A stretch of DNA of 64,000 nucleotides from an uncultured Chloroflexia bacterium. GTDB lineage: Bacteria; Chloroflexota; Dehalococcoidia; DSTF01; WHTK01. The translations under genes were made by a program, and so were the position numbers. The stretch is from NCBI GenBank assembly GCA_963732945.1, contig CAVTBL010000017.1, forward strand, positions 257,944-321,943, given 5' to 3'. The notes below the pieces were generated by a model that saw only the letters and a list, made by a program, of their open reading frames with translations, was not told the origin of the DNA and made no database searches. Below, one piece after another: positions 43,070 to 47,099 of the stretch. The first letter of the stretch is position 1; every line of letters begins with the position of its first letter.

Positions 43070-44173
43070 ATGCTGGAGGCAGTTCCCGGTCTCGACGACC
43101 TGCGTGTCTACGCCTGGGATATTGCTTCATTTTCACCGGCCAGCCTCCTCGCCCTCGAAGCCGAAATTGCGTCGCTCCTCGGTTGGAGCGATGTTTTCCC
43201 CATCGTCACCTGTCAGCGTTACGAGGTCGTGTGCCTCGACGAGCCACCATGTCTCTCGGCGCCGCGCACCTACCGAGGCATGGAGGCCGTGCGCCATATC
43301 GCGCGCCTTGCCTCCGGCATCGAGTCGCTGGTGCTCGGCGAGCCCGAGATCCTCGGCCAAGTACGCAGCGCCTTCACGTCGGCGCCATCGCAGGTGCGGC
43401 ACCTGGTCGCGCCCGCGATCAGCGCCTCGCGCGCCCTGCGACGCGAGGTCGACTTCGCGCGACACGCCGGTCACAGCCTCGACCTTGCACTCGACCATGC
43501 AGGTCTCGAACCGAAGGGCACGCTGCTTACCCTGGGCGGCGGACCCATGGGCCGTCGCATCGCCGATCGCGCCGCGCAGCTCGGTTTCGACGTAACACTG
43601 GTCGCGCGCCGGCCGCCTCCGCTGCCGCCGGGCGTGGACTACCAGCCGTTTAGCATGCTGGCCGAGCTCGAGGCTGCGGACGTTGTGGTTGCCTGCCTCG
43701 GCGCCTCCGCACCGCAGCTCGGCGCCGGTGACCTGCCGCCGGTGCGCCGTCTTGCAGTCGACCTCGGTACGCCGCGCAATCTCAAACACGGCATCGAGGC
43801 GCCGATTGTGACGCTCTCGGACCTTGTCGAAGCCCATCGCAAAGCGCCGCTCGACGCCGAGCAGCGAGTCGAGCTGAGCGACCGCCTCGACGATATGCTC
43901 TCGACCCGTCTGGCGATGGCGCGCTCCGGCTCGCCGCTGGGCTCGCTACGCAGCGAGGTCGAGCGTATCCGCATGCGCGAGCTGACGCGTTCGCTGCGGT
44001 TGCACCCGGAGCTGCCTGCCGAGACCCTCGACACGATCACGCGCTCCCTGGTCAACCAGATCTTCCATCGCCCCAGCCAGCGCCTGCGTCAGAGCGAAGA
44101 CGAGGAGCTGGCCGCCGCGTTTGCCGCCCTGTTCCAACCCCACAGCCAGGAGGAGCCGCATGACAACCTCTAG
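43070..44173 (+). CDS. hemA: Glutamyl-tRNA reductase (divergent N-terminus)
   Basis: TCQRYE (catalytic Cys), ASGIESLVLGEPEILGQVR, GGGPMG, DLGTPRN, SLVNQIFHRP. Confidence 0.88.
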   Translation: MLEAVPGLDDLRVYAWDIASFSPASLLALEAEIASLLGWSDVFPIVTCQRYEVVCLDEPPCLSAPRTYRGMEAVRHIARLASGIESLVLGEPEILGQVRSAFTSAPSQVRHLVAPAISASRALRREVDFARHAGHSLDLALDHAGLEPKGTLLTLGGGPMGRRIADRAAQLGFDVTLVARRPPPLPPGVDYQPFSMLAELEAADVVVACLGASAPQLGAGDLPPVRRLAVDLGTPRNLKHGIEAPIVTLSDLVEAHRKAPLDAEQRVELSDRLDDMLSTRLAMARSGSPLGSLRSEVERIRMRELTRSLRLHPELPAETLDTITRSLVNQIFHRPSQRLRQSEDEELAAAFAALFQPHSQEEPHDNL

Positions 44174-45296
44174 CCCTCCCATCGACCTCGCCGATCCCGT
44201 CAACGCCGCCATACTCGCCGTCTCGGAGGACCGCCTTGCGGGCTTCCGAGACGACCCGTTCGCGGACATCGCGGCGCAGTCCGGCATCGACCTCGACACG
44301 GTAATCGAGCGCGTACGGGCGATGCTCGAAGCGCGCACGATTCGCCGCGTGCGGCAGACGGTGCAGGCCACGAAGCTCGCGGCCGGCGCGCTGGTCGCCT
44401 GGCGCGTCGATGCTTCGAAGCTGGACGCAGCCTTCGAGTACATGGTCCACGACGACCCGTTCTCCGGCCACGTAGTGCTGCGATCCACCGATGCCAGCGC
44501 CGCCGGCCACGACTACCGCCTGTGGACGACCATCAAGGTGCCGCAGGGCTTCTCGCTGGCGAAGCACTGCGAGTATCTGCGAAGGTGGGTCGGCGCCGAA
44601 GCGTTCCATGCCATGCCGGCGAAGCGTCTGTTCGTGCTCGGCGTCGGGCACCTGCGGCGCCGCACGATCGAGCCCGGTGCGCGGTCCGACGCGGCAGCCG
44701 AAACGATCACGACCGACGTGGTGACGCTGACCCCGCGCCAGTGGGCCGTGCTCGCAGCCGTGAAGCGGGAGCTCGAACCGGATGAGATCATGCGCGACGT
44801 CTGGTCGGCGCGCGCTGCCGAAGCCAGTCTCGACCTCGCTGACTTCGTGGCGGAGGCGCGCAGTCTGGAGGCGCTCGGCCTCATGGGACGCTTCTCGACC
44901 TTCCTCGAGCATGTGAAGCCTCTGAGCAGCGGCGAGCTGGTGACGCGCTACAACGCGCTGTTCCACTGGTCCGTACCCGTCGGGCGCGAGATCGAGGCGG
45001 GACGCGAGATCGGGCGCCACCTCATCCTTACGCACGCCTACTGGCGCGAAGGCGGGCCGGCGTTCGGCAACGTCAACGTCATGGCCGTGGCGCACGGCCT
45101 CGACAAGCAGCTACTGCTCGACCACAAGCGCGCCATCGACGAGCACCTCGCCGCCATCGACATGCCGGTGTCCTACACCAACGTGTTCTGGGGCGGCCGC
45201 AGCGAAATCAAACCGTCAGAGGTCATGCCGGACGCCTACGTGGCCTGGTGCCGCAGCGCCGGCATCGACCCGGAGACGATGAGGGAGCAAGCCTGA
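44160..45296 (+). CDS. Fused siroheme decarboxylase AhbA/AhbB (NirDL-type, Lrp/AsnC-like)
   Basis: Two HTH plus AsnC-like repeats; [20 protein letters not shown] and [29 protein letters not shown] overlapping the hemA end. Confidence 0.78.
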
Positions 45297-46303
45297 TGCA
45301 ATACAGAACGATTCGCGGTACCGGCATCGAGGTCTCGACTGTCGGCTTCGGCGTCTGGACCGTCGGCACGACCTGGTGGGGCGTCAGGGAGCGCGACGAC
45401 GGCATCGCCCTGCTGCGACGCGCCTTCGACCGCGGCATCACGTTCTACGACACCGCCGACACATACGACAGCGGCAACGCCGAGACGATCCTCCATGAAG
45501 CCCTCGGCGACCGCCGCGACCAGATCGTCATCGCCACCAAGTTTGGCTACGACATCTACAACAACCCGGAGTCGCCGAACCAGCGCGAGCGTCCGCACGA
45601 CTGGTCGCCGGCCTACATGCGCAAGGCGCTGGAGAACTCGCTGCGGCGTCTTGGCACCGATCACATCGACTTGTATCAGCTGCACAACCCGCGCATCGAC
45701 GCGATCGAGAACGACGAGCTCTGGCACGAGCTGGAGCGCGCTCGGAGCGAGGGCCTGATCCGGGCCGTCGGCGTGGCGCTCGGTCCGGCCATCGACAACC
45801 GCCAGATCGATGAGGCCGTCGCGGCGATCCGTCTGCGCGGCGCGACGCCCCAGATCATTTACAACCTGCTCGAGCAGCAGCTCGGGCGCGGCGTCTTCGC
45901 GGTCGCGGACGCGGAGGACGCATCGGTGCTGGTGCGCGTGCCGCACTCTTCCGGCCTGCTCGACGGCAGCGTGCGCAGCGAGACCGAGTTCGCGCCCGGC
46001 GACCACCGCAACTGGCGCGTGACCAGCAATGAGAAGCGCCGCGCCTGGCTCGAAGACGGCCTGCGCAAGGTCGAACGCCTCGACCCCCTGATCAGCGACC
46101 GTAGCATCGGCCGGCTCGCGATCCAGTTCATCCTGCACCACGACTGCATCGCCTCGATCCTGCCGAACATCTACGACACCGAGGGCCTCGACGACTTCAC
46201 AGCCTTCGACTCGGCGCCGCCGCTGACCCACGCCGAGTACGATGAGATCCAGGCGCTGTACGAGCGCAACTTCGACCTCGAGCCCGCCGGGACGGGAGGC
46301 TAA
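45296..46303 (+). CDS. Aldo/keto reductase
   Basis: [35 protein letters not shown] coupling with the upstream gene. Confidence 0.93.
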
Positions 46304-46306
46304 CCA

Positions 46307-47099
46307 ATGAGCGAGCACCAGGAATCGGCGCCGGCAGCAGCGCAGCGGGCCGCCGCGCCGCATGGTCGACCTCGACCCCAGCGGTCAGGTCGGCGGCCGC
46401 GAGCCGGACCAGGCGACGCGTCAGTTCCTCGGCTACGTGTTCTACAAGCTCGACCCGGCGTTCAAGCGCCTGCCCCCGGAGCAGCGCCGCGAGGCCGGCG
46501 AGGAGTTCGTCGAGCTGTGCCGGCGCTGGTCGGAGCGCAACGACTTCATCCTGCGCACCTACTCGCTGGTGGGCCTGCGCGCCGACTGCGATTTCATGCT
46601 GTGGCGCATCGCCAACGACGTCTGCCTGTTTCAGGAGATGCAGGCCGAGATCAACGCCACCTGCCTCGGCGCCTACCTCAACACCGCCTACAGCTTCCTG
46701 GCGCTGCAGAAGCGCTCGCAGTACGTCAACCGCATCGAGGGTTCCGGTCACGGTCTCGAGATGCTGCCGGGACAGGGCAGCTACCTTTTCGTCTACCCGT
46801 TCGTGAAAACGCGGGCCTGGTACGCGCTGACGCCGCACGCGCGCCAGGGCATGATGGACGAGCACATCAACGCCTCAATGCCGTTCAAGGGCGTGCGGAT
46901 CAACACGAGCTACAGCTACGGCATCGACGACCAGGAGTTCGTCGTCTCGTTCGACTCCGACTACCCGCAGGAGTTCGTCGACCTCGTCGGACGACTGCGC
47001 CACACCGAGGCCAGCCTCTACACCCTGCGCGACACGCCGATGTTTACCTGCGCCAGGACGGAGCCGCCGCAGATCATGCGCCAGCTCGCGGTTCTGTAG
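46307..47099 (+). CDS. Chlorite dismutase family protein, probable coproheme decarboxylase ChdC/HemQ
   Basis: GLRADCDFMLW, YPFVKTRAWY, MMDEH, SYGIDDQEFVV, RDTPMF. ORF is 46362..47099; the RBS-preceded ATG at 46307 is out of frame. Confidence 0.8.

Follow-up and report, generated by a model that had tools for sequence, protein, structure and literature searches.

Haem can be made from siroheme by the alternative haem biosynthesis (AHB) pathway of sulfate reducers and methanogens, which involves AhbA/AhbB, AhbC and AhbD. AhbC is a radical S-adenosylmethionine (radical-SAM) enzyme with iron-sulfur clusters. The coproporphyrin-dependent (CPD) pathway of Gram-positives and Deinococcus radiodurans (HemE, CgoX, CpfC and ChdC) passes through coproheme, on which ChdC acts in the final step. 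A 2026 article in Chemical Reviews recognises, in the part accessible to us, three haem routes, of which the siroheme route comprises AhbA-B, AhbC and AhbD only, and names AhbC as the sole enzyme that removes the acetate side chains of didecarboxysiroheme (PMC13564367). According to the accessible portions of two papers, AhbA/B and AhbC of Haloferax volcanii are followed by ChdC aerobically or by AhbD anaerobically (PMC5746218; PMC8305020). Here we analysed a 64,000-nucleotide stretch of the genome of an uncultured Chloroflexota bacterium of the class Dehalococcoidia (hereafter the window; contig CAVTBL010000017.1), focusing on a cluster of four genes in which an aldo/keto reductase (AKR) lies between a fused AhbAB-like siroheme decarboxylase and a ChdC-like protein.

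Like the AHB pathway, the system that this cluster points to would start from siroheme, involve an AhbA/B-type decarboxylase and have no need of HemE or HemH. Unlike it, no AhbC or AhbD was found, an AKR and ChdC occupy the place of two radical-SAM enzymes, and the hosts are aerobes. The likeness to Haloferax is that of a siroheme route hybrid ending in ChdC, but that archaeon, in the portions of its literature cited above, retains AhbC (HVO_1121), which was not found in the window's genome. With the CPD pathway the system shares coproheme as last intermediate and ChdC as last enzyme, whereas HemE and HemH were not found, and in Deinococcus the AKR and AhbAB are confined to genomes that lack hemE. 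We incline to the view that the AKR and ChdC stand in for AhbC and AhbD, giving the siroheme route a radical-SAM-free finish. What is new here is a candidate enzyme role for the AKR in a variant of the known siroheme-dependent pathway.

Many aerobes without HemE and AhbC keep AhbAB and ChdC, including 61 of 81 Deinococcus, Chloroflexota labelled Tepidiformaceae, Rubrobacteraceae and one Brevibacillus. One unexplained reductase, the AKR, marks these aerobes, and thaumarchaeal-type (ammonia-oxidiser) DNA has AKR, ChdC and AhbAB arranged in the same way. If the proposed role is true, there would be a fourth way to finish haem synthesis, used by ammonia-oxidising archaea, most sampled Deinococcus, aerobic Chloroflexota, Rubrobacteria and others. 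A textbook pathway would gain a new enzyme, and automatic pathway calls that score such organisms as unable to finish haem would be corrected. The gap is reduced to three or four genes, and cultivable hosts exist. The searchable literature, whose coverage stops short of the 2017 review in Microbiology and Molecular Biology Reviews and the 2018 ChdC phylogeny, held no paper linking an aldo/keto reductase to didecarboxysiroheme, coproheme or siroheme, and nothing on Nitrosopumilus with siroheme decarboxylase; PMC8305020, in the portions cited, does not deal with a route that lacks AhbC.

Haem synthesis in the genome of the window

The genome that contains the window (3.17 Mb, 17 contigs, estimated 83% complete) has a canonical hemA-HAD-hemL operon on contig 4 (G000:C4:243618-247141), with a BldC-type helix-turn-helix (HTH) gene ahead of it, and cysG-N, hemC, cobA and hemB on contig 6. 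Based on these genes (HemA, HemL, HemB, HemC, CobA and CysG-N), the organism is predicted to be able to make siroheme. It also encodes two haem-copper oxidase subunit I genes. There was no match in this genome to HemE (TIGR01464) or HemH (TIGR00109), by which the CPD pathway would be recognised. The best match to AhbC reaches 66 bits against a cut-off of 650, and the same radical-SAM gene scores 80 bits for AhbD (cut-off 500). AhbD-type genes of relatives score 127-202 bits on the AhbC model, a grade that no gene of this genome attains. The earlier note, made from the window's letters, had proposed a hybrid route from siroheme through coproheme to ChdC in which the AKR has a role, and had named an ahbC or a complete HemE-type route elsewhere in the genome, together with non-conserved AKR linkage, as evidence to the contrary; no ahbC, hemE or hemH was found. 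As a reading of gene content, the hybrid route with a role for the AKR is supported. Because the genes for siroheme, AhbAB, ChdC and haem-copper oxidases are present and AhbC was not found, haem would be needed, its formation from siroheme could be started and finished, and the one enzyme known for the middle step is missing.

A cluster with an aldo/keto reductase as candidate for the AhbC step

The earlier note had described four overlapping or nearly abutting genes at 43070-47099, and these coordinates are exact (Table 1). The hemA-like and ahbAB genes overlap by 14 nt, as read in the sequence at the junction, the TGA stop of ahbAB shares one base with the ATG of the AKR gene, and the AKR and chdC genes abut without overlap, separated by 58 nt. 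Ribosome sites of the GGAGG type precede the hemA-like, ahbAB and AKR genes. Domain annotation of the window proteins agrees with the earlier claim that the cluster has no radical-SAM gene, and none adjoins it.

The AKR spans positions 2-290 of the 291 in the PF00248 profile, well above its cut-off of 24 bits. Its structure model (pLDDT 87.7, pTM 0.89) is closest to the folds of AKR11A/B/C. The residues assigned by AKR motifs to the catalytic tetrad (D52, Y57, K82 and H130) are intact, and the Tyr, Lys and His are invariant among 12 close relatives. With bacterial AKRs of the AKR11 type (Bacillus subtilis YhdN/GSP69 and IolS) the protein shares the (alpha/beta)8 barrel (Foldseek TM 0.77-0.80), the tetrad and 26-30% identity. 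Unlike these, the clade of the window protein has the invariant motifs GFGxWT..WWG, TKxGYD, RVPHxSG and DHRxHR, a fixed linkage to ChdC and no known substrate. The clade profile gives 637 bits for the window AKR and at most 128 for the five AKR paralogues in its own genome, and in a one-genome-per-species scan it separates members (at least 313 bits) from the next AKRs (at most 206). A profile search of 1.84 billion representative proteins returned 1434 matches at 1e-30, and the full-length representatives above 300 bits include clusters named Thermoleophilia, 'Thaumarchaeota archaeon CSP1-1' and 'Euryarchaeota archaeon RBG_16_68_13'. Close relatives bear Dehalococcoidia or Tepidiformaceae names, other database names being generic, and the further labels in the protein atlas are Chloroflexota and Deinococcota only.

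The last gene encodes the only Chlor_dismutase-family protein of its genome. It falls below the NCBIfam equivalog cut-offs (HemQ_actino, 126 vs 235 bits; PRK12276, 70 vs 253 bits), and its sequence places it in a separate clade of the HemQ/ChdC family. The YPFxK motif and proximal His reported earlier are present as YPFVK (Tyr145, Lys149) and His168; all three residues are invariant among 12 ChdC sequences and align with the coproheme decarboxylase of PDB entry 9mhq. They correspond to the catalytic Tyr in Y-P-F/M-x-K and the proximal His of ChdC. The distal catalytic Arg of chlorite dismutases comes 13 residues past the proximal His, a position that, going by the spacing, would be occupied here by an invariant Asn181. 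In comparisons with PDB sequences, coproheme decarboxylases score 95 and 87 bits and chlorite dismutases at most 62. By sequence score this gene is predicted to be a coproheme decarboxylase and not the true chlorite dismutase that would have spoken against the earlier proposal. A 272-aa open reading frame (ORF) in another frame (46307-47125, +) covers nearly all of chdC; its translation is rich in Arg, Pro and Ala, and it looks like a high-GC shadow frame and no gene.

The second gene had been called a fused AhbAB-like decarboxylase. Its domain layout bears this out, with the two modules of HTH and AsnC-like ligand domain expected of an AhbA/AhbB fusion (AsnC_trans_reg2, 57 bits; NirDL-like HTH, 26 bits) and PDB matches to the NirD-like 4ch7 and the AhbA/B 4un1. 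The protein is nevertheless divergent, with 69 bits for NCBIfam AhbB (cut-off 125) and 49 bits for AhbA (cut-off 140), so that it misses both equivalog cut-offs; canonical fused forms score 163-192 bits. Its residues 33-373 align full-length with the 361-aa canonical fused AhbAB of Deinococcus alpinitundrae at 24% identity, and it is the sole gene of its type in its genome. Fused AhbAB as such is already known, as in many archaea, from the accessible part of one report (PMC11237513).

The designation of the first gene as HemA stands as far as the domains go (Pfam GlutR_N, 55 bits; GlutR_dimer, 43 bits). The protein is otherwise a diverged paralogue, with 78 bits against the TIGR01035 cut-off of 209.55 and a match confined to profile positions 89-403, which falls short of a HemA equivalog with its full N-terminal catalytic domain; the canonical hemA lies on another contig (C4:243618-244961). 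It keeps the TCQR Cys48 motif, corresponding to the TCxR Cys motif of glutamyl-tRNA reductase, as well as GEPEILGQV, and it matches PDB 1gpj with 49 bits. Orthologues with at least 51% identity occur only in a subclade of the genus (G002, G006, G011, G014, G015 and G016). The gene is thus a lineage-specific extra outside the core module, and the window cluster is a variant within its genus, with a diverged hemA duplicate and a divergent AhbAB where other members have canonical versions.

Distribution among relatives of the same order

We examined 41 genomes of the order, in five families, calling AKR orthologues at 267 bits or more (paralogues score at most 170). HemE above the cut-off was found in none of the 41. 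The AKR orthologue and ChdC each occur in 25 genomes and coincide in 24; the mismatches are G040, whose AKR is truncated at the end of a contig, and G020, in which chdC is in fragments. AhbC is absent from 23 of the 25 AKR genomes (best match 66 bits or less). Full-length AhbC-like genes are present in 11 of the 41, comprising all eight genomes of families f2 and f3 plus G024, G031 and G034; at 538-590 bits they are under the curated AhbC cut-off of 650, yet AhbC is their best family. All eight f2 and f3 genomes have AhbC and neither ChdC nor the AKR. Two genomes assembled into single contigs (G012 and G014) have the AKR, AhbAB and ChdC, no match to hemE, and best AhbC-model matches of 45 and 54 bits, that of G012 being its sole match. 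Seven of the 41 have neither AKR nor AhbC; six of these are 58-82% complete, and the seventh (G039, 96% complete) is without any haem-finishing gene.

Gene order in this group bears on the earlier suggestion that the AKR sits where AhbC would be expected, which holds in a comparative sense. In G022 (family f3) the order is BldC-type HTH, AhbC, cysG-N and hemA, and AhbC lies within about 2.2 kb of hemA in all eight f2 and f3 genomes. In G012 (family f1) it is HTH, AKR, canonical AhbAB, ChdC, hemA, HAD and hemL, so that the AKR, AhbAB and ChdC genes sit inside the HTH-hemA-HAD-hemL frame known from contig 4 of the window's genome. The two genomes of genus g12 (G031 and G034) have an adjacent pair of AhbC and an AhbD-like gene together with an adjacent pair of AKR and ChdC. 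A fusion of AKR and ChdC in family f4, suspected from open frames of 640 aa, was rejected, the long frames being out-of-frame overlaps typical of high-GC DNA.

Deinococcus and other bacteria

The Deinococcus sample consists of 81 genomes (G041 and G046-G125), in which AKR orthologues score at least 436 bits and the next best match at most 215. In 20 of these genomes hemE was found, 19 times above the cut-off and once split in two. Among the 61 without hemE, the AKR is present in 60, an AhbB-family match above the cut-off in 59 and both in 58, whereas none of the 20 with hemE has either. AhbC was found in none of the 81; there are matches at 1e-25 (145-165 bits) in two hemE-positive genomes only, and the hemE-less genomes have no match to the AhbC model at E 1e-25 or better. 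The hemE-type Deinococcus also use ChdC, as the D. radiodurans control, positive for both ChdC and HemE, illustrates. Because ChdC is shared in this way, it is the siroheme route, rather than ChdC itself, that the AKR goes with. Among the 81 Deinococcus sampled, the route by coproporphyrin that D. radiodurans uses is in the minority, 59 of the 61 hemE-less genomes scoring for a fused AhbAB instead. The genomes being kin, this distribution amounts to one or a few evolutionary events and not to sixty. Together with the order, in which AhbC is so often missing beside the AKR, it answers the proposed check of the AKR clade against AhbAB, ChdC and absence of AhbC in favour of the earlier reading. 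One of the 60 AKR genes has an in-frame TGA (G048:C2:1540352-1541224), and a hemE-less genome without the AKR has an AhbB-type match broken by two stops (G072:C18:71251-71682). In both genomes the module may be decaying, or these may be assembly errors.

In the one-genome-per-species scan, an AKR-ChdC pair was found in D. alpinitundrae (61% and 67% identity to the window AKR and ChdC, respectively) and further pairs in two Rubrobacteraceae metagenome-assembled genomes (MAGs). Clade AKRs without an adjacent ChdC occur in Brevibacillus massiliensis, other Dehalococcoidia, an Acidimicrobiia MAG and a Gemmatimonadaceae MAG. The adjacency holds in all 27 bacterial loci examined from the Dehalococcoidia-class order, Deinococcus and Rubrobacteraceae. 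Four genomes (G041-G044) combine one ChdC and a fused AhbAB above the cut-off with the absence of HemE and of AhbC (best AhbC match 68 bits or less), and four more (G126-G129) have one ChdC, no HemE above the cut-off and no AhbC match at 1e-15; the lineages of G042-G044 and G126-G129 are Rubrobacteraceae, B. massiliensis, Dehalococcoidia, Acidimicrobiia and Gemmatimonadaceae. Another genome (G045) has AhbC, an AhbD-like gene and no ChdC match, its AKR-AhbAB contig stopping where chdC would come, and a dehalococcoidial genome (G130) has an AKR outside the clade and no ChdC. The AKR of Gemmatimonadaceae comes after hemC-hemB, and AhbAB of B. massiliensis lies between hemB and hemL. When ORFs of 16 bacterial loci were clustered, only AKR and ChdC were common to all, with AhbAB in seven and hemA in five. 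AhbAB loci from three phyla had no other gene in common.

Archaeal loci and co-inheritance of AKR and ChdC

A metagenome scan with archaeal AKRs yielded 80 loci of thaumarchaeal type, with a median G+C of 33%. In 60 of the 80, ChdC immediately precedes the AKR on the same strand, and in 19 of the remaining 20 the contig extends 611 nt or less upstream of the AKR. A canonical fused AhbAB is located just downstream in convergent orientation in 39. For example, one fully annotated locus encodes archaeal TFIIB, S8e, SRP19 and Gar1, then ChdC, DUF1802 and the AKR, and continues with a convergent AhbAB, precorrin-2 dehydrogenase, hemA and hemB. Conservation of AKR linkage, which had been proposed as a check, thus reaches far past the genus and spans two domains. 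Every supported group is common to the maximum-likelihood trees of AKR and ChdC built from one set of 20 loci, among them one uniting Deinococcus with the sub-lineage of the window (support 100/99 and 100/100). Because the two trees agree, the pair has been inherited or transferred as a unit.

DUF1802 (PF08819) was considered as a universal missing enzyme and rejected, as it is absent from the six-frame translation of the window's own genome and from the bacterial loci other than one (L027).

A candidate finishing route and its alternatives

On balance, the cluster more likely than not is a module that finishes the siroheme-dependent haem pathway without radical-SAM enzymes and in a manner compatible with oxygen. 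In such a module, AhbAB would yield 12,18-didecarboxysiroheme. The AKR and ChdC would then do the work of AhbC and AhbD in anaerobes, forming coproheme by removal of the acetate side chains at C2 and C7 and haem b by decarboxylation of two propionates. Speculatively, the C-C scission could proceed by radical chemistry of the ChdC type, from peroxide and the substrate's own iron, at the same rings A and B, and the AKR with NAD(P)(H) could act on an intermediate whose acetate side chain or macrocycle bears a carbonyl or hydroxy group, coproheme being the product of the pair. That the AKR and ChdC are an undescribed oxygen-compatible, radical-SAM-free pair leading from didecarboxysiroheme to haem b, and hence the first case of an AKR in tetrapyrrole biosynthesis, we regard as evenly poised between true and false. 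The earlier note had left the AKR either to bridge the AhbC step or to assist ChdC. The comparative data lean, short of proof, towards bridging, because there is no other conserved candidate, genomes in which HemE provides coproheme lack the AKR, and genus g12 combines two pairs of adjacent genes.

Several observations weigh against this assignment. The counted genomes are kin, so that the independent lineages number about eight and not about a hundred. Absences are based on hidden Markov model searches of six-frame translations, many from draft genomes or MAGs, including the incomplete genome of the window. The searches of G126-G129 covered HemE, ChdC and AhbC, and the thaumarchaeal evidence consists of gene neighbourhoods in metagenome loci. 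In G031, G034 and G045 the AKR occurs together with AhbC, so the two are not simple either/or substitutes. DUF1802 lies between chdC and the AKR in 38 of the 80 archaeal loci (e.g., L132:5459-6001 and L154:5414-6001), and in one Dehalococcoidia locus (L027:5390-5980) it immediately precedes the AKR; it may be an extra partner of the module, and further partners are possible. The clade itself has no sharp outer border in a global 50%-identity library, where profile scores slide smoothly from 429 to 204 bits. Two divergent clade members depart from the tetrad: that of Thermoleophilia carries N52 and T82 where Asp and Lys would be catalytic, and that named 'Euryarchaeota RBG_16_68_13' is without Tyr57; members from ammonia-oxidising thaumarchaea have Glu in place of Asp52. 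These replacements suggest that hydride transfer may not be universal in the clade. Chemically, an AKR offers hydride transfer, whereas radical chemistry would be expected for C-C cleavage, and no polar mechanism is evident by which an AKR might cut the C2-CH2 bond, which makes the mechanistic step speculation.

It is possible, if distinctly less probable, that the AKR is an auxiliary of ChdC needed only when coproheme derives from siroheme, where no CgoX step supplies peroxide. It might provide or balance redox equivalents or clear an aldehyde by-product, with deacetylation carried out by ChdC alone or by an unseen enzyme. In Deinococcus, Rubrobacteraceae and family f5 the constant neighbour of the AKR is ChdC rather than AhbAB, which fits such a role, as do the three genomes that combine the AKR with AhbC and the absence of the AKR from hemE-type Deinococcus, which have a CgoX-type route. 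An auxiliary AKR would leave a further enzyme to be found in 23 of the 25 AKR genomes of the order and in 60 Deinococcus unless ChdC is bifunctional, yet no other gene is conserved nearby, and translational linkage in two domains would hardly be expected of an enzyme that merely clears two aldehydes for each haem. Moreover, AKRs are flavin-free and not known to produce peroxide, which counts against an auxiliary of this kind.

We consider it unlikely that a divergent radical-SAM protein or other unrecognised enzyme elsewhere performs the AhbC step and that the AKR is haem-related but dispensable, for example in regulation or cofactor trafficking. Three radical-SAM genes of the window's genome do match the AhbC model weakly (52-66 bits), and some radical-SAM match exists in most genomes searched. 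The best of the three is nevertheless closest to a tungsten-cofactor maturase (140 bits) and is flanked by genes for a molybdopterin oxidoreductase and a DUF2079 membrane protein, and the AhbC-model searches of G012, the hemE-less Deinococcus and G126-G129 described above, with their single 45-bit match or none at the thresholds given, also count against it. The idea that AKR and ChdC are linked by chance hitch-hiking, or that the last gene encodes a chlorite dismutase or a peroxidase with no part in haem synthesis, draws on the sub-threshold HemQ score and the abundance of AKRs in the genome, and is very improbable given adjacency in Chloroflexota, Deinococcota, Actinomycetota and Thaumarchaeota with congruent trees, the presence of hemA, hemL, hemB, hemC or cysG-N in clusters of several lineages, and the invariant ChdC residues and PDB scores reported above.

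Coordinates and flanking genes

Table 1. Features of the haem gene cluster, in positions of the 64,000-nucleotide window.
Feature	Position	Strand	Basis
Intergenic region, predicted promoter and leader	42694..43069	+	Sequence read; from divergent methyltransferase gene to cluster
Diverged glutamyl-tRNA reductase paralogue, 367 aa	43070..44173	+	GlutR_N, GlutR_dimer
Fused AhbA/AhbB-like siroheme decarboxylase, divergent type (putative), 378 aa	44160 (ATG)..45296	+	AsnC_trans_reg2, NirDL-like HTH
Aldo/keto reductase, ChdC-linked clade, 335 aa	45296 (ATG)..46303	+	PF00248, 149 bits
ChdC/HemQ-type coproheme decarboxylase (predicted), 245 aa	46362..47099	+	PF06778, 187 bits

The region ahead of the cluster is probably its promoter and leader, judging from a relatively AT-rich segment (42920-43060) and a GGAGG ribosome site ahead of 43070. 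Neither flank has genes related to haem. On the opposite strand upstream are MarR and methyltransferase genes; downstream, about 115 nt 3' of chdC, there is a gene for an F420-dependent luciferase-like monooxygenase (LLM) oxidoreductase of the TIGR03621 family (47214-48077, +; 254 bits). All three were considered as parts of the module and rejected, as they are not conserved with the cluster in relatives. The window, family f5, Brevibacillus and Deinococcus all have methyltransferase genes close to the AKR; these are homologous no further than the generic SAM motif, and their occurrence was treated as coincidence. Further downstream, a Rieske-type oxygenase (48375-49737, -) is split in two overlapping frames, one with the Rieske domain (49414-49737) and the other with the LigXa_C catalytic domain (48375-49568), which reflects either a frameshift or an assembly error.

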